A stretch of 64,000 bases of DNA from an uncultured archaeon (GCA_964458565.1 CAYWJO010000001.1:64001-128000); one strand, 5' to 3'. Positions 1,107-10,495 are shown, numbered from the stretch's first letter. The notes: generated by a model not told the origin, from the letters alone. Numbers and translations: made by a program.

Positions 1107-2759
1107 CTAGATCTTTGAGCGATATTTACGACGTAAGGTAGGTGATATCTCTGGACTGACGAAATCAGGATCCTCTGATTTATCGATGGATGGTTCATCC
1201 ATAGAATCATCTCTCATCAAAGATGATATCCGGTATCTCCAGAAGATGATGTAACATACAATGAATATTGACAATGCGAAGACTAAACCGATTACCATAT
1301 GAGTTGGACTCAGAAATGAAAGATCAGGCCCATCCTCTGCAATGGAGGCTGGTACTATCTTGAATCCTTCGTTGAGATAATTGATGAGTGTATGAGCAGC
1401 AATTGGTCCCATTAGACTTTTCTCTTCAGAGAACTTGACATACCACACACTGAACAGACCACCTAATATTCCACTGAAGGCGACCTTTACAAAAGCCTCA
1501 CTTGCTGGAAAAATACCCGTTTTCACAAAATCTTGAATAGGCCATGCAATATGCCAGAATCCAAAGATAATTGCCGCAGCAACTATAGCTCTATTGATTC
1601 CAAAACGCTCTTTGAAACCATGATATGTGAGACCGCGAAAATAGGTCTCTTCAAAGATCGCATTGATGAAGAATAATGCGAAATTGTATACAATGAGAAA
1701 GGAATCCATCGCAATAGTGAATTGAGCAGCGACACTAGAATCTAATAGTCCTGTATAGATGACAGTTGAAACAATATTCACCAGGAAGTACTCAAAAACA
1801 GCGAAGCATATTCCTATCAATACTAATGCTCTCAAATGGAATGTGGTCAATCCTAGTACAGGTTCGAATTCGTGATGCCGTAGATACCAGAAGATACCAA
1901 GGAGAACTAAAACCGAGAGGATCTTACTAGGCATGACATTGATTACGGTCTCATCGACATTCCAGATGTAGATGTCAATCTCACGAAAGATATAGAATAC
2001 CGGCAAAAGGAGAAGTGCTAGTGAAAGAAGACTACTACTTGCTACGCGATTCTTTACTCTAGAGACAGAAGAATCTAGGGTTTCGGACGGCCTTACTGTC
2101 TTTTGTCTTCTAAACCAAGGATTACTTAGCGCCAGCCCTGCAATCACAGTGGATACGCCGCGAATAATATGAGCGATGAATGCAAGCCCTTGTGTCTGGA
2201 GCGGAATAAGCACTAATTGACTAATTATCATGAGGACCATTGAGAAAACCATGATATCACTGCGAACTTCTTTGAGACGTCCCGTTCTCCAAGTGACAGC
2301 AAACATAGCTGTCAAAGCTAAAATAACTATCAAAACAAGGACTATGATTAGTGTCATGATAATTTGCTCAGAAGGACCAAATGTACTGACAGAGATGGCA
2401 TAGAGAGATTCTCCTAAAAGAATCTGGCGATGTCTATGTTTGATACGATATGCCCAGATATCTAACAGAACGATAGACATTGGAAATACGCTCAACCACA
2501 CCGAAAATGCTCTGATTTTGAAGATTTCAAGTGTATTGGGAATTAATCCCTGACTTATCGAGAAAAGAATGATTGGATTAATTGCAGCAAACAGAAAGGA
2601 TAATCCAAAGGCAAGCGGGAGATCTGTGGATAGACGATTTTCTTGCCGTTTCCAAAGTAAAAGCAAGTAAGCTCCAACAATAATGCTAACGATTATTGAA
2701 ACCAAGTTAGCAGCATCACCAAGAAGATAATCAAGGCCGATTTGTAGCAAATTCTTCAC
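1107..2759 (-). CDS. Multi-TM protein with C-terminal CPBP (Rce1/Abi CAAX-type) intramembrane protease domain
   Basis: FEETYFRG (EExxxR), FGFWH (FxxxH) and AHTLIN (HxxxN) motifs; extra N-terminal block of about 7 TM helices. Confidence 0.75.
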   Translation of the reverse strand: MKNLLQIGLDYLLGDAANLVSIIVSIIVGAYLLLLWKRQENRLSTDLPLAFGLSFLFAAINPIILFSISQGLIPNTLEIFKIRAFSVWLSVFPMSIVLLDIWAYRIKHRHRQILLGESLYAISVSTFGPSEQIIMTLIIVLVLIVILALTAMFAVTWRTGRLKEVRSDIMVFSMVLMIISQLVLIPLQTQGLAFIAHIIRGVSTVIAGLALSNPWFRRQKTVRPSETLDSSVSRVKNRVASSSLLSLALLLLPVFYIFREIDIYIWNVDETVINVMPSKILSVLVLLGIFWYLRHHEFEPVLGLTTFHLRALVLIGICFAVFEYFLVNIVSTVIYTGLLDSSVAAQFTIAMDSFLIVYNFALFFINAIFEETYFRGLTYHGFKERFGINRAIVAAAIIFGFWHIAWPIQDFVKTGIFPASEAFVKVAFSGILGGLFSVWYVKFSEEKSLMGPIAAHTLINYLNEGFKIVPASIAEDGPDLSFLSPTHMVIGLVFALSIFIVCYIIFWRYRISSLMRDDSMDEPSIDKSEDPDFVSPEISPTLRRKYRSKI

Positions 2760-2906
2760 ATACCTGTTTATTCAAACTACACTTCCGTCGTTTTCTTCGG
2801 TATTAAACACCACAAAAACTCGGAAAATTAAGGAGGGGTTAATAGGCGCAGGAATTATATGAAGGTACGAACATCTAGTTTCTTGTATAAATTAGGAGGA
2901 TAACAA

Positions 2907-3344
2907 GTGGCAGAAATACCCACACCAACTGGTTACTCATCTCAAGCGAAATCTAGACCACTAGGTATAACAATTCTAGCAATCCTCATGATTCTGGGAG
3001 GTCTTCTAAACCTCATGGGAATCAGCGGATCATTCTACTATACGCCCGTATATGGAATTTACACCGCAGTATCAGGCGTGCTAGGACTTATACTTGGAAT
3101 TGCTATGTGGCAATTGATTCCATGGGCTAGAAAGGCTGCAATACTCTGGTATATAATCAGTTTACTCATATCAGCAGTTCTGGTTTTTTACCTCGGAGCA
3201 ATCATCGATACAATATTGCCAGGTCTTGGGACGATGACAGCTATGATTTCAATAATACCCTCACTAGTGATAGGTTTAATCATCATCCTCTACCTCAATT
3301 CAGGTGGAGTGAAGGCGGCGTTTCAGGAAGTAGGTGGCTGGTAG
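2907..3344 (+). CDS. Small 4-TM membrane protein
   Basis: RPLGITILAIL N-terminal motif; four hydrophobic segments; GGAGG RBS. Confidence 0.7.
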   Translation: MAEIPTPTGYSSQAKSRPLGITILAILMILGGLLNLMGISGSFYYTPVYGIYTAVSGVLGLILGIAMWQLIPWARKAAILWYIISLLISAVLVFYLGAIIDTILPGLGTMTAMISIIPSLVIGLIIILYLNSGGVKAAFQEVGGW

Positions 3345-3366
3345 AGTCTAAATATTGAACAATATT

Positions 3367-3399
3367 GAGGGGTCAGTGACCCCTCGAAGTTTTTTTTTT
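3367..3399 (+). terminator. Hairpin plus T-tract terminator
   Basis: gaggggtc-agt-gacccctc stem followed by a T10 run. Confidence 0.75.
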
Positions 3400-3473
3400 A
3401 ACCCGAATGAGATTAATAGTGGATAGTAAAATAGATACTCAATTAACATAATGTAAGAATTGGGGGATTAACG

Positions 3474-3959
3474 TTGTATTCAGAGCAATTCGAGATTCCT
3501 AATGCAAGCATGGAAGAAGTAAAGGACAGAGTAAAATATTGGCTCTCTTCGTTTCAAGGCGCAGAATATCTAATGGAAGTTGTATCTGAGAGACACGTAA
3601 AGATATCCAAAACAAAACATGACCTAAAGATATGTGCGTATGGTTGTATTGTCTACATTATATCAATAGCAGCACTGCCATTCATTGTATTTCCTATGGT
3701 TACGTCCCCTGCTACAGCTCTAACCATGATCTTCACCTACATGCTCGTAATCCTCTTGGTATTGCCAATATTCATTGGATTATTTTGTTTGAAACCCAAT
3801 AAGGCAGAATTTGATGTCAGATTCAGTATGGAATACCCGATTAGAGTGATGATTGTGGCATCCGGAAATATGTTGAAGGATTCCATGTATGATTATGATG
3901 GCTTTAAGGAGGCACTCAATCCAAGCGGGTTTGTTGGAGGACCCGGACTCTCATCCTAG
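3474..3959 (+). CDS. Hypothetical 2-TM membrane protein
   Basis: 161-aa ORF with two central hydrophobic helices. Confidence 0.6.
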   Translation: MYSEQFEIPNASMEEVKDRVKYWLSSFQGAEYLMEVVSERHVKISKTKHDLKICAYGCIVYIISIAALPFIVFPMVTSPATALTMIFTYMLVILLVLPIFIGLFCLKPNKAEFDVRFSMEYPIRVMIVASGNMLKDSMYDYDGFKEALNPSGFVGGPGLSS

Positions 3960-4069
3960 ATGTTCATTACATTCCTCAACAGGTAGTACAGAAGAAATAT
4001 AAAACAAACAAATTCTCCGCATGCAGTACTCACTGGACTATGATTGTAAATTGTTGGAGATTTAGATAG

Positions 4070-4660
4070 ATGAGTGAATCAAGAAATGTCGTAATTGTCA
4101 CTGGGATCCCCGGTGTTGGTAAGACAACTGTCATAAACACAGCTGTAGATATGGTAAAGAAAGAACAGGGGGAGGATGTTCTTGTCCTAAACTTTGGAAC
4201 GGAGATGTTTGAAGTAGCATTGGAAAAGGGATTTGTGACAGATCGGGACCAGCTTCGCAAGATGCCTACTGCTAAGCAGCGGGATGTGCAGAAGATGGCA
4301 GGTGAAAGTATTGCAGAGAAAGCAAAATCTGCAAGAGTCATTGTTGATACTCATACACTTATCCAGACAGAAAATGGGTTTCTCATTGGTCTTCCGGAGT
4401 GGGTTGTACGTGCGATTTCTCCTAAGACAGTAGTATTGGTAGAAGCAGACCCAGCTAATATAGCAAATCGAAGATCAACAGATGAAACACGTACAAGGGA
4501 TGAACAGCTGACCGAAGATATAAGAACCCATCAAGAGATGTGTAGAGGTGCTGCAGTCACAGTTGGTACTCTTACAGGTTCAACAGCAAGAATAATCAAG
4601 AACCGTGATGGTCAAGTAGAGGAAGCTGCAAGACAATTAGCAGACACTTTGAAGGAGTGA
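4070..4660 (+). CDS. adkA: Archaeal adenylate kinase
   Basis: GIPGVGKTT P-loop; RDQLRK, IVDTH and GLP motifs; expected context upstream of DUF106-L34e-cmk-L14e. Confidence 0.95.
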   Translation: MSESRNVVIVTGIPGVGKTTVINTAVDMVKKEQGEDVLVLNFGTEMFEVALEKGFVTDRDQLRKMPTAKQRDVQKMAGESIAEKAKSARVIVDTHTLIQTENGFLIGLPEWVVRAISPKTVVLVEADPANIANRRSTDETRTRDEQLTEDIRTHQEMCRGAAVTVGTLTGSTARIIKNRDGQVEEAARQLADTLKE

Positions 4661-6609: not shown

Positions 6610-7617
6610 ATGCTAGGGCGATTGCCTGCAGATCGACCCGATGACACAATTGTCTTAGTAAGTGATACGACAACTAATCCCGATTTCGGGTTTTCTGATC
6701 TTGATTCATTACCAATACAATATCTACTCAGAAATGGCGTGATATGTCTCGACAAACCAGCAGGACCAACAAGCCATGAAGTTGCGACATGGGTGAGAAA
6801 AATCCTGAAGTCTGATCGCGTCGGTCATGGAGGGACTCTTGATCCTGCTGTGACTGGAATATTACCAATGGGTATTGGAGATGGGACGAAGGTTATGCAG
6901 GCGTTATTACCAGCAGGCAAGGTGTACGTTTGCTTAATGGAGCTTCATGGTCCAGCAGATGAGTCAGATCTAAGGAGCGTAATTGCTGAATTTGTGGGAA
7001 AAATCTATCAAAAGCCCCCACTTCGATCGGCCGTCAAGCGTGTTCTTCGGGTCAGGGAAATTTACTATATTGATATTCTTGAAATTAAAGGTAGATTTGT
7101 ATTATTTAATGTTGGATGTCAGGCAGGTACATACATCCGGAAACTCTGCTTCGATATCGGAGAGGCAATTGGCCAAGGAGCGCATATGAGAGAACTACGA
7201 CGAACACGAGTTGGTAATTTCTTAGAAGATGAACATCTGTGTTCGTTGTATGATTTGAAGGATGCGTATGAGTTCTATATTGAGGATGGAGACGAAACAG
7301 AATTACGTAGATACCTTCTGCCAATAGAATTCGCATTGAAGCATCTCCCTATCATGAAACTTCGGGATTCTGCAGTAGATGCAATCTGTCATGGTGCAGA
7401 TCTTGCGGCTAGCGGTGTTGTGGAAATCTCTTCAGATATTATGAAAGGAGACCTCGTAGCTTTGAAAACCCTCAAAAATGAGGGGATAGCTATTGCGCGG
7501 AGTGAGCATCCAGCTTCCAAGATTTCCACGATGAGGAGCGGGATTGTAGCTAAGATTGAACGCGTGTTCATGGAAAGAGGACGATATCCACCTATGTGGA
7601 AAAAGAAAGAGGCGTAA
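6610..7617 (+). CDS. cbf5: H/ACA RNP pseudouridine synthase Cbf5
   Basis: DKPAGPTSHEV, GHGGTLDP (catalytic Asp), GTYIRKLC and a C-terminal PUA domain; uninterrupted. Confidence 0.96.
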   Translation: MLGRLPADRPDDTIVLVSDTTTNPDFGFSDLDSLPIQYLLRNGVICLDKPAGPTSHEVATWVRKILKSDRVGHGGTLDPAVTGILPMGIGDGTKVMQALLPAGKVYVCLMELHGPADESDLRSVIAEFVGKIYQKPPLRSAVKRVLRVREIYYIDILEIKGRFVLFNVGCQAGTYIRKLCFDIGEAIGQGAHMRELRRTRVGNFLEDEHLCSLYDLKDAYEFYIEDGDETELRRYLLPIEFALKHLPIMKLRDSAVDAICHGADLAASGVVEISSDIMKGDLVALKTLKNEGIAIARSEHPASKISTMRSGIVAKIERVFMERGRYPPMWKKKEA

Positions 7618-7661: not shown

Positions 7662-7747
7662 ATGGCTCTGGAGCAGAAGCGCAACTGACGGTACTCATCT
7701 TTAGATGAGAGCTGAGGAAACTCCCGACTACTTGTCGACGCTGGTCC
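7662..7747 (+). pseudogene. rnpB: 5' remnant of an RNase P RNA gene (copy A)
   Basis: 7681-7729 matches 8117-8165 at 47 of 49 nt, including GAGGAAACTCC (CR-I); 7662-7676 is complementary to 10481-10495. Confidence 0.8.
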
Positions 7748-8099
7748 TGTGACCTCTTCCTATTCAAAGGAATAATATCCATGGATGAGAGAAAAGAAGA
7801 TTGACGCGATAAGTCTTGTTGAGAGAGTCAATTGGAGTTAATGTGACACAGTATAATAACTAGTACAAAAAAAAGCGATTGCACTATACCTATTATGCAA
7901 TTCTCAAGAGCCTCCAAAAGACCTTATGTGTAGTTCTCATTACAAGTGCTCTTTATTCATATATATCAAGTATCATTTAAAGATAGCATATTCTTTCACG
8001 AAACGAACTCATTACTGAGTCGCAGAAATGCAATAGCAAGAATACATGTTGAAAATGGCATTCCCAATCCTTATCAACAAAAAAAGAGCTAATGTTGAA

Positions 8100-8442
8100 A
8101 GCCTTGGAGCGAAAGAGCAACTGACGGTACTCATCTTTTGATGAGAGCTGAGGAAGCTCCCGACTCATACCGGCACCAGTCCATTCCGGAAGGTGAGAGC
8201 CTTGCTCTGGAAACAGAAACGACACCCCCAGACAGGATTTGACAATGATACGGTGATTGAATCCGTTGAGGATCCATCTGGTCAGGATGAAACGGTCCAT
8301 CACTGGTGAGCAATCTCAAGAATACATCAATGAAGAGCCGGTCTGAGATGTAGGGTAGAGAGCATAGTTCGATGTTGCAAGCCCATTACATGGTAACGTG
8401 TCATGGGGGAACAGAATCGGGGCTACTCTTCGGACCAAGGCT
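8100..8442 (+). ncRNA. rnpB: Complete archaeal RNase P RNA (copy B)
   Basis: CR-I GAGGAAGCTCC; ACAGAAA and TGAAACG loop motifs; CR-V AACAGAATCGGGGCTA; P1 agccttgg/ccaaggct; P2 gcaac/gttgc; P4 agc(t)cccga/tcggggct. Confidence 0.92.
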
Positions 8443-8579: not shown

Positions 8580-9488
8580 CTATTCATTCTTATCGAAAAC
8601 AAATCCTATGTCATTGAGTCTTTTCTTAAATTTCTCCTGAATTCTCTTTACTGGAAACCTGAACTCTTTTCCATCCTTTCCGATAACTATCAAAGAACGT
8701 TGCCACTTGTCCAGTAAACCCAGAAAATCTATGACCAGGAAGATTTGTTGATCCACTTTGATTGATTCCTTTACCTCTGATGGAGGGCCATAATAGTTGT
8801 ATCCTTGTGCATTCCAAATCATTTCATATTCTTCTCGTTGTTTCGAATTTAGATATGGGATATATGGTGGTATAACTGATTTGTATTTGTTCAAAATAGT
8901 GACCTTTAGGTTGTTATATATCCACCTTTCTAATTCTAGAAGTAAGAAACCTAAATCTCCCATTACAACTCTTTGTATTGCACCAATAAAGACCATTCCT
9001 TCAGAAAGATTCTTCATATTATCTAAGAATCCCAGAATTGATTCATCATCCAATAATCTCCATTCAGCATTAACTTGGTCAATGAAAATGAATCTGTAAT
9101 TATGGGCAAAGATATTTCTAACATCCTCATATTCATCCCAGAACTTTTATGAGTACCATACACAATCCATTATTCTATGAAAGACGTCTTTCAGAAGGCT
9201 TCTCAGTTCTTCTGCAATTGCATCATCCAAACGGGAAAAGAAAGGAATTGCAAACATCCGACATATATCTTTCTCAGTAAAGGACTCTTTGCGCATTTGA
9301 TTTTCTATATGTCCTCTTTGTCCTCTAGGATCTATTAATATTGACAGTATCTTTTCCAAATTCCTCTTTCCCGATGCTGTGAATTTCCATGCTGCTGCAA
9401 TTGCGCCCTGAAAACTCTCTATAATACCCAAGACTCTAAAAATAAAGTCTGCATGGATTGCATCATACATATCCTTGTTTTTTACCAC
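8580..9488 (-). pseudogene. HEPN-motif protein gene interrupted by one in-frame TAA (9147-9149)
   Basis: ORFs 9147..9488 and 8580..9053 are in the same frame. The linker reads ...VWYS*KFWDEYEDVRNIFAHNYRF... and contains RNxxxH. Visibly more AT-rich than the flanking core genes. Confidence 0.65.
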
Positions 9489-9546
9489 ACCTCCTTTTAT
9501 TGAATCGACTTCAACATTATTTGTGATATATTGTGAATAAAACTCG

Positions 9547-10449
9547 TTGATAAGTTTGAAATATTTCTCTCGAATCTTTGAAGACCGGATTAGCGACCTA
9601 AAGAAACAGATTCATGTCCTAAAAGATGTTCGTCGTTCGGCACCACCAATCATCAAGGTAGTTGGGACTCAAGCAACATTATTGATTCCCTTCATGCCTC
9701 CGGACAAATCACTTTTGAGAACTTCACTTCGTAATCTTGGAAGAAGGACTCGTAGAGCGGGTGTGGACCGAGGTCTAAGACACTCCATGGTGGTTTCAAT
9801 AAAGAATGGTGGGAGTAGGTATTCTGAACGAATGATTGGTAAGCAGGAACTATATGAAAAGAGAGAATCTCTACGACAACGAACAAGAGTTTTGATGTCA
9901 CAGATAGCAAAGAAACGAAACAACTGGGAGAGAAAACATTCGAGACTGCAAGATCCAGCCATCATACTGAAGAAGGAAAGAGAGCTGGAGTCAGTATGGA
10001 GAAAGATCCGTCGTCTCGATAAGGAAATCTCCCATCAAGTTGCTTCTGAAACCGTCTGGTTCTGCGAGCATCTAGCCGTGAAGACGATTTATTTTGAAGA
10101 CCTCAGGACTTTTCAGGGAAAAGGGGGAATGCGAAGACACAGCTGGAACCTCTCAACAAATCTCTGGGGTCAGATGATACAGGGAGTCACCTATAGACGA
10201 CATTCGATGGGTTACAAATCGGGTGGAGTCTGGATGGTCAATCCGTATATGACTTCCCAGATATGCAGTGTGTGTGGAAAAAAGGGAATCAGAGTTCAGA
10301 ACAGAGATTCTGAGGTAGAACAGAAAGGAGGAGAGTTTTTCTACTGCCCAAGTTGTGAAACCCGACTTCAAGCAGATGTTAATGCAGCTAGGAATATTAT
10401 GAGTGTTAAAATACAAGAACCCAGTGCCGTTCCTGGGTGGACAACATAA
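9547..10449 (+). CDS. tnpB: TnpB-family RNA-guided nuclease, N-terminally truncated
   Basis: RuvC-I GVDRG, RuvC-II FEDL, zinc ribbon CSVC/CPSC and RuvC-III ADVNAARNI. The RuvC-I Asp is at about residue 74, so the N-terminal lobe appears to be missing. Confidence 0.88.
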   Translation: MISLKYFSRIFEDRISDLKKQIHVLKDVRRSAPPIIKVVGTQATLLIPFMPPDKSLLRTSLRNLGRRTRRAGVDRGLRHSMVVSIKNGGSRYSERMIGKQELYEKRESLRQRTRVLMSQIAKKRNNWERKHSRLQDPAIILKKERELESVWRKIRRLDKEISHQVASETVWFCEHLAVKTIYFEDLRTFQGKGGMRRHSWNLSTNLWGQMIQGVTYRRHSMGYKSGGVWMVNPYMTSQICSVCGKKGIRVQNRDSEVEQKGGEFFYCPSCETRLQADVNAARNIMSVKIQEPSAVPGWTT

Positions 10450-10471
10450 GTTAGTCCAATCTATAATGAAT
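9547..10471 (+). mobile_element. Right-hand remnant of an IS200/IS605- or IS607-family element
   Basis: tnpB followed by two hairpins (acccag/ctgggt at 10419-10438; ggac..gtcc at 10439-10457), then an abrupt junction to host rnpB 3' sequence at a GG dinucleotide; no tnpA or left end visible. Confidence 0.65.
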
Positions 10472-10495
10472 GGTTACTCACTGCACCAGAGCCAT
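10472..10495 (+). pseudogene. rnpB: 3' remnant of RNase P RNA copy A
   Basis: ggttactcactgcaccagagccat parallels copy B's ggctactcttcggaccaaggct; pairs 14/15 with 7662-7676; followed by a pyrimidine tract. Confidence 0.75.

Follow-up and report, generated by a model that had tools for sequence, protein, structure and literature searches.

How did a transposon end come to lie inside rnpB, the essential, single-copy gene for RNase P RNA, with a second, diverged rnpB in the same break? The locus that raises this question lies in the window analyzed here, a 64,000-nt stretch of a 3.7-Mb archaeal draft genome (G000) that is 93% complete and so far the only one from its genus. Behind cbf5 are the two ends of one rnpB (copy A), and between them stand a complete rnpB (copy B), a gene with a HEPN motif and the C-terminal part of a tnpB (Table 1). 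A first-pass annotation had proposed that this may be a cleave-and-rescue element, in which the TnpB nuclease could have cut uninvaded rnpB alleles while the cassette supplied a resistant one. All of the elements that it described at the locus are present, with coordinates adjusted by 1–3 nt. Our own reading, to which we give slightly better than even chances, is that the locus preserves a fossil IS607-family insertion in the resident rnpB together with a diverged rnpB that replaced it, and that the insertion needed this guide-mismatched copy in order to persist.

Table 1. Features of the cbf5-rnpB locus, in window coordinates
Feature	Coordinates	Strand	Basis
cbf5 (pseudouridine synthase)	6610..7617	+	Pfam TruB_N, TruB_C_2, PUA, DKCLD; conserved upstream neighbor of rnpB in the family
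5' remnant of rnpB copy A (P1, P2, P3, CR-I region; 88 nt)	7664..7751	+	80–86% identity to the 5' part of relatives' rnpB
AT-rich spacer, 33.5% G+C	7752..8100	.	No homolog in any fetched locus or in the own genome
rnpB copy B, predicted working RNase P RNA gene	8101..8441	+	RF00373, 142.2 bits, model positions 1–288
HEPN-motif gene, single frame with one in-frame TAA (9147–9149)	8580..9500	-	RNIFAH motif after the stop
C-terminal 300 codons of tnpB, IS607 family (RuvC and zinc ribbon)	9547..10449	+	Pfam Cas12f1-like_TNB, E 1.5e-13; OrfB_IS605 weak
3' part of guide-RNA scaffold and element right end, GG core at 10472–10473	10420..10473	+	Shared by 24–29 homologous loci, with compensatory base-pair changes
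3' remnant of rnpB copy A (3' strands of P2 and P1; 20 nt)	10474..10493	+	Aligns with the 3' end of relatives' rnpB

Two ends of a resident rnpB enclose a complete, diverged copy

Because the layout is nested, we asked whether it is real. DNA near-identical to the window occurs in salt-marsh metagenomes, and contigs from another such metagenome, of the same year and not flagged as the window's source, cross both junctions with zero differences, which excludes an assembly error as the cause of the arrangement. In relatives, cbf5 and rnpB are 45–75 nt apart, and copy A sits behind cbf5 with native-like spacing. The likeness of its 5' piece to relatives' rnpB breaks off abruptly at 7751, and its 3' piece begins exactly at the end of the TnpB-type transposon, where the conservation of the right end stops. 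Singly, both fragments fall below every threshold of the archaeal RNase P RNA model RF00373; they align to relatives' genes nonetheless. The P1/P2 strand in the 3' piece is complementary to 7664–7680 in the 5' piece and not to copy B, which carries compensating differences where the two A pieces pair. Since the pieces are mutually complementary in P1/P2, they are the ends of one former gene, and this complementarity, together with the native spacing behind cbf5, identifies copy A as the resident rnpB. A comparison of how closely the A pieces and copy B resemble relatives' genes does not tell which of the two is native. A DNA contig from another salt-marsh sample (run X5) matches the window from 7663 (first base of the A remnant) onward and is unlike it before that point; this contig may carry a relative's A-type rnpB.

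Copy B encodes a full archaeal RNase P RNA. Its match to RF00373 covers the full length of the model and exceeds the gathering cut-off of 84 bits, and it is the sole complete rnpB in the assembly. A metatranscriptome contig of 333 nt equals 8108–8440 without differences, and a second contig from an RNA library covers 8024–8432. Copy B is therefore probably expressed, with contigs from RNA libraries counting as support and not as proof. The covariance score, the status as sole complete copy and the exact RNA-library contig together indicate that copy B works as the RNase P RNA gene of this genome. Contigs from RNA libraries cover copy B only: the A remnants, the HEPN-motif gene, tnpB and the right end are uncovered, an absence that does not equal silence. 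One of these contigs begins about 80 nt upstream of mature B (8024–8107), behind a TTTAAAG-like box near 7978, and copy B may have a promoter of its own and be transcribed with a leader, in which case the last ~80 nt of the spacer would be that leader.

The flanks of copy B are peculiar to this locus. Neither the spacer nor the stretch after B matches any fetched locus, and comparison with the cbf5 tail and with the GNAT-like ORF that lies upstream of rnpB elsewhere showed that they are neither. A tree of rnpB genes (33 rows, bootstrap not settled) names no donor for B and groups it, on a long branch, with some sequences of genus 6 and genus 8. The HEPN-motif gene matches no family in Pfam or NCBIfam, and its RNIFAH is of the Rx4-6H type; an intact homolog with 45% identity occurs in genome G064, where it is linked neither to rnpB nor to the insertion sequence (IS).

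The transposon end belongs to a truncated IS607-family element

The tnpB frame of the window corresponds to residues ~414–703 of open frames of ~700–750 aa, with identity of at most 69%. Because it aligns only to the last ~290 residues of its homologs, its N-terminal ~410 codons have been lost. Full-length homologs are present in 40 of the 85 other family genomes, as many as 13 in a single one. One of them matches the NCBIfam models guided_TnpB and IS607_TnpB, both below curated cut-offs, and by Pfam and NCBIfam the family groups with TnpB/Cas12f-like nucleases.

Behind tnpB, a hairpin (10420–10437) and a stem (10439–10442/10454–10457) are kept with compensatory changes across 24 aligned right ends; the window's right end is without the inner hairpin found in most copies. 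At 26 of the 29 homologous loci, conservation ends with ..ACGG followed by T, and the sequences diverge beyond. The window reads ..ATGG at 10470–10473, and its alignment to the homologs holds through 10473. From the point at which conservation stops in these loci, it follows that the window element ends at the GG at 10472–10473. The first-pass annotation had noted two hairpins and a right end beside the 3' end of copy A and had suggested that full-length copies be sought to define that end; the homologous loci place it as predicted.

To define whole elements of this family, we compared filled with empty sites, using the orthologous uninterrupted sites in G000 as reference; the left end was found only by this comparison. 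Both ends could be defined for a 2.7-kb copy in a TldD-like gene of G009 and for an 8-kb copy on contig 20 of G068. Both insertions fall precisely at GGGG or GGG and duplicate nothing beyond the shared core; the rnpB insertions of G068 and of the window agree with this GG-core pattern. The 8-kb copy encodes a 205-aa TnpA just inside its left end (Resolvase, E 3.6e-24; MerR, E 3.9e-10), and the G009 copy carries a truncated tnpA. At five sites of this family, NGGG (AGGG, GGGG or TGGG) precedes the insertion point. For another IS607 element, experiments established a strict GG core, TGGG as target and target-adjacent motif (TAM), and a guide-RNA scaffold ending in UCGG (bioRxiv 10.1101/2023.11.20.567912). 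With a MerR-HTH/resolvase TnpA in its relatives and GG-core junctions that lack target duplication, the window element is, by sequence, of the IS607 family, as had been proposed. A search of two full elements against Rfam found no group I intron and no other family, so that an IStron-like reading is unsupported. In the G009 copy (contig 1, L100:6669–9343), which splits a TldD/PmbA-like gene, the 5' part of the gene ends in a stop codon at the junction.

The window's own copy is without left end, tnpA and the first ~410 codons of tnpB. The first-pass annotation had likewise described a TnpB without its N-terminal lobe and without tnpA, and had supposed that it was either a relic or dependent on a copy in trans. 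The former is what we found. Searches of the G000 assembly returned no TnpA homolog, no full TnpB of this family and no other DNA copy of 9547–10495, and thus no intact partner; what the genome holds otherwise is a tnpB fragment of 64–92 aa on contig 25 and weak matches to distant TnpB-like sequences on contigs 7 and 68. The element is dead and inert. Its tnpB fragment is still open and the A remnants still pair perfectly, which suggests that the truncations of both the element and copy A are recent.

The predicted guide matches the lost allele

In IS607 elements, the guide is the flank just past the right end. By this grammar, the guide slot of the window copy is 10474–10493, the last 20 nt of the old A allele, and its predicted guide RNA would be directed at that allele, in agreement with the earlier proposal that the flanking host sequence serves as guide. 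In relatives with A-type 3' ends, GGGG directly precedes the sequence homologous to the guide, and so the TAM of an uninterrupted copy A would resemble the ones at the other insertion sites. This candidate TAM fits both the NGGG found at the five family sites and the TGGG measured for another IS607 TnpB; the expectation that a reconstructed A allele would carry a suitable TAM is borne out to that extent.

Copy B has 8 mismatches to the 20-nt guide, 5 of them among the first 12 positions. It retains GGGG at the same place (8419–8422), so any resistance would rest on guide mismatches only. Thus, of the idea that B had escaped the guide, the many differences stand and the loss of a TAM does not. 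An arbitrary allele from the family would usually mismatch the guide anyway, which makes the mismatches of B weak evidence of selection.

Related elements have entered rnpB in other genomes

We wanted to know whether this insertion is an isolated case. In G068, the right end of the IS adjoins rnpB at about nt 254, where the intact form would read the TAM AGGG; the first 254 nt of that gene lie at the end of another contig, beside cbf5, and no complete rnpB was found in this bin (90% complete). The locus of G077, a 97% complete genome from another genus, is contained in a 139-kb contig. Its order is cbf5, nt 1–260 of the old rnpB, a 744-aa ORF, a full rnpB, an inverted IS remnant, and the old rnpB from about nt 272 to its end; the right-end flank of the inverted remnant is nt 255–271 of the old gene. 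Once a single inversion is reversed, the order agrees with that of the window, with an old 5' piece, a full diverged rnpB, an IS remnant and an old 3' piece. The full rnpB of G077 equals the old copy over nt ~10–200 and has B-type ends (P1). Against the guide of that element it is mismatched at positions 4–5 and has one extra base.

In both genomes with a fully assembled locus, then, a diverged spare rnpB lies in the same break. The genes between the pieces differ between G000 and G077, and the G064 homolog of the HEPN-motif gene is unlinked. Of the rnpB-HEPN-tnpB cassette that the first-pass annotation had suggested looking for in other genomes, a similar layout recurs in G077. By a post hoc estimate, two independent hits in rnpB among roughly 150–300 right-end loci compare with 0.03–0.06 expected if insertion were at random GGGT sites.

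Unrelated insertions also accumulate at rnpB

Remnants of rnpB beside full copies are not confined to loci with this IS. Contig 46 of G080 (L089, about 1987–4629) carries cbf5, a 34-nt rnpB 5' remnant, a duplicated cbf5 C-terminal tail, a 379-aa ORF and a full rnpB, with no TnpB nearby. Contig 316 of G064 (L110:3238–4126) has a full rnpB, a 119-aa ORF, a repeat of the last ~65 nt of rnpB and then the native downstream flank. The 119-aa ORF contains a GIY-YIG-like motif, with no match in Pfam, and the arrangement looks like an insertion of the free-standing homing-endonuclease type that brought its own rnpB 3' end. G066 provides two cases of a 3' remnant behind a full rnpB. The 3' remnants of G064 and G066 measure 29–66 nt, and the gap to the full rnpB is 18 nt in one case and holds unrelated ORFs in the others. 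On contig 91 of G068 (L109, minus strand), three serial 3'-end remnants of about 30, 33 and 60 nt (849–874, 2584–2612 and 4168–4222) are separated by unrelated ORFs, and behind the last one come the native flank and a Tsr3-like gene, a pattern that resembles island-like accretion at rnpB. Because no IS607 element is near the remnants of G080, G064, G066 or G068 contig 91, replacement of rnpB does not require TnpB. As judged from these layouts, the rnpB locus is a general insertion hot spot, also for insertions unrelated to this IS.

Order of events

From the junctions, the identities of the parts and the status of copy B, we infer the following course of insertion, cleavage and selection. An IS607 copy would have entered copy A at GGGG, 20 nt from the end of the gene. 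The intact element, if it worked as IS607 and IS605 elements do, would have made a guide RNA with 10474–10493 as guide, and its TnpB would have cut uninterrupted A-type alleles (GGGG plus the guide sequence) on sister chromosomes or incoming DNA, which is ordinary retention homing. Since rnpB is essential, the interrupted A would have lasted only where a second rnpB, unmatched by the guide, was present alongside. Copy B, acquired from another lineage, would have filled this role in cis. Later deletions would then have taken away the central part of A as well as the left portion of the element, leaving the system inert. We regard it as an even bet whether selection for a guide-mismatched spare ties the fixation of B causally to the insertion or the two merely coincide. 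Several points weigh against our reading, among them the rnpB replacements without TnpB and the weak evidence from the mismatches of B. The sequence does not reveal in which order the events took place. At 7751|7752, the left junction was not formed by a transposase, and a left-end motif or TnpA remnant was sought both in the window insert and in the G077 locus without being found. In other genomes, no tie of the spacer, of B or of the HEPN-motif gene to the IS could be detected.

The insertion might instead have come late. In that account, a foreign segment with B and the HEPN-motif gene landed in copy A at nt 88 and took over, an IS607 copy later entered the dead 3' part at GGGG as a neutral passenger, and one deletion removed the rest of A along with the left half of the IS, so that the match between guide and old allele is accidental. 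Only three simple events are needed, this IS family enters many genes (such as the TldD-like gene of G009), and the IS607-free remnants described above show that a full rnpB can come to lie beside an old piece by other routes. The dead remnant would have been a tiny target of ~240 nt, yet three genomes have a member of the family in rnpB sequence, at two sites. The old gene of G077 is preserved on either side of the insertion point as far as its ends, which means that the IS went into a full-length rnpB in that genome; the spare copy is at most a few nt away from this break. The interrupted rnpB of G068 is, moreover, the only one assembled in that genome. We consider a late, neutral insertion somewhat unlikely, and prefer an insertion into the working resident gene.

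A bolder account is that of the first-pass annotation, a true cleave-and-rescue or intronless-homing cassette. Copy B, perhaps with cargo, would have traveled linked to TnpB and its guide RNA; A alleles would have been cut, repair would have copied both the nuclease and the resistant rnpB, and the unit would have spread. Several parts of such a cassette can be recognized. The guide slot is the end of the A allele, intact A-type genes offer a candidate TAM, and B, mismatched to the guide and the sole complete rnpB, lies between the two A remnants and within 2 kb of the right end; its resistance is predicted from sequence only. In G077, the parts follow the same order at another rnpB site and the spare copy mismatches the guide of the element there, and IS607 copies of the family carry large cargo between tnpA and tnpB. 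What speaks against the cassette is the lack of a mobile unit: no genome examined has an intact element with rnpB inside, the flanks of B are unique, the intervening genes differ between G000 and G077, and the G077 spare copy is outside the right end as that locus now stands. Additionally, B-type copies form no tight clade of recent spread, B itself being on a long branch; the left junctions were not made by a transposase; and the window's nuclease is truncated. Of the first-pass proposal, the guide, the TAM, the mismatched B and a recurrence in G077 are supported; the union of B, the HEPN-motif gene and tnpB in one mobile unit is unsupported. We find this account quite improbable. Equally doubtful is its extension to the whole family, by which IS607-type TnpB elements home into rnpB and travel with, or select for, a guide-mismatched spare, and so form an RNA-guided natural counterpart of intronless homing or cleave-and-rescue that drives allele replacement between lineages.

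Finally, it is highly improbable that the insertion was tolerated at the RNA level, the element being removed from the transcript or RNase P RNA being pieced together from two transcripts, of which the 3' one is a fusion with the guide RNA, with no spare needed and B unrelated: the element is sense-oriented in G000 and G068, as IStrons are, and G068 and G054 assemble only interrupted or truncated rnpB genes, but these two are draft bins of 85–90% completeness whose contigs break at the site, the two full elements match neither a group I nor any other intron model, and copy A of the window, without about 220 nt of its core, cannot work.

Relation to known systems

The element closely follows the IStron-type IS607 of Clostridium botulinum (bioRxiv 10.1101/2023.11.20.567912). 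Shared features are a serine-recombinase TnpA with an N-terminal MerR-type HTH, a tnpB that reads toward the right end with the guide just past it, a GG core that is present once in the empty site and at both junctions of the filled one, an NGGG-type target and TAM, and a scaffold ending in CGG, by virtue of which the element does not cut itself. Unlike the C. botulinum IStron, the family described here has a TnpB of ~700 aa with some 280 extra N-terminal residues, many of its copies carry an ORF of 1560–1690 aa, and it has no group I intron; the window copy, in turn, is a truncated relic in an essential RNA gene.

In the retention homing of IS605 and IS607 elements, the TnpB nuclease aims at the element's own uninterrupted site, which is then repaired from the element-bearing copy (PMC13565253). 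The predicted guide of the window is aimed in the same way at the uninterrupted form of its own insertion site. That site, in contrast, is inside an essential single-copy RNA gene, so that retention requires a second gene unmatched by the guide. To our knowledge, cutting of empty own sites by TnpB has been known only at dispensable sites. The closest natural process to cleave-and-rescue is the intronless homing, or marker exclusion, of SegF and SegG, free-standing homing endonucleases of T-even phages (PMC13565253). There too, a nuclease stands beside a variant of a conserved gene and cuts the other variant, and repair co-converts the neighborhood. SegF and SegG, however, read DNA by protein contacts and act between co-infecting phages, whereas the system at rnpB would have been RNA-guided and chromosomal, with co-transfer hypothetical.

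Synthetic cleave-and-rescue (ClvR, or toxin-antidote) drives are engineered and act in diploid sexual organisms. The window shares their logic of a programmable nuclease directed against an essential gene together with a recoded, uncuttable copy in cis; unlike them, it is a decayed natural arrangement, with no evidence of drive. The duplicates of the rnpB 3' end (26–66 nt) that flank cargo in several family genomes recall integrative elements that target the 3' ends of tRNA and tmRNA genes. In the window, by contrast, the 3' remnant begins at a transposon right end, no integrase was seen, and the locus also holds a 5' remnant and a whole second gene, neither of which results from integrase-type insertion.

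A literature search found no papers that link TnpB and rnpB. The element itself belongs to the known IS607 family, its TnpB being unusually long and large cargo being frequent among its relatives; the novelty lies in its target and the consequence, namely an essential RNA gene that has been hit repeatedly and a diverged spare in the same break. If the causal link is true, a selfish RNA-guided nuclease forced the replacement of a core housekeeping RNA gene, which would be a natural precedent for cleave-and-rescue and would offer an explanation for mosaic or xenologous rnpB genes. Even a conservative reading yields a concrete pair of guide and target, with a sensitive (A) and a putatively resistant (B) allele, for a previously uncharacterized family of ~700-aa TnpB nucleases from salt-marsh archaea.

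Other features of the element family

In the ~700-aa proteins, the TnpB core begins near residue 280 and is thus preceded by a long N-terminal extension (L039:1498–3606, minus strand, and about 100 homologous loci). Many IS607 copies of the family have their large ORF of 1560–1690 aa between tnpA and tnpB, divergent from tnpB (L096:27–5006, plus strand; L094:725–5416, minus strand; L097:1372–6432, plus strand). This cargo ORF has no match in Pfam, NCBIfam or PDB, and we do not call it a Cas1 homolog. A downstream motif has been reported for Cas1-linked TnpB loci of Asgard archaea (PMC10691335); it was sought behind the guides of this IS family and not found. Direct alignment around and beyond the stop of the large ORF revealed no sequence conserved between loci. 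Over the first ~1350 residues compared, the cargo ORF itself is ~60% identical between genomes.

The genome of the window contains a second relic of this IS family on contig 11 (32365–32819; L111:2366–2820), where a solo right end is joined to a 122-aa fragment of the cargo ORF. Solo right ends of ~65 nt occur by the dozens across the family.
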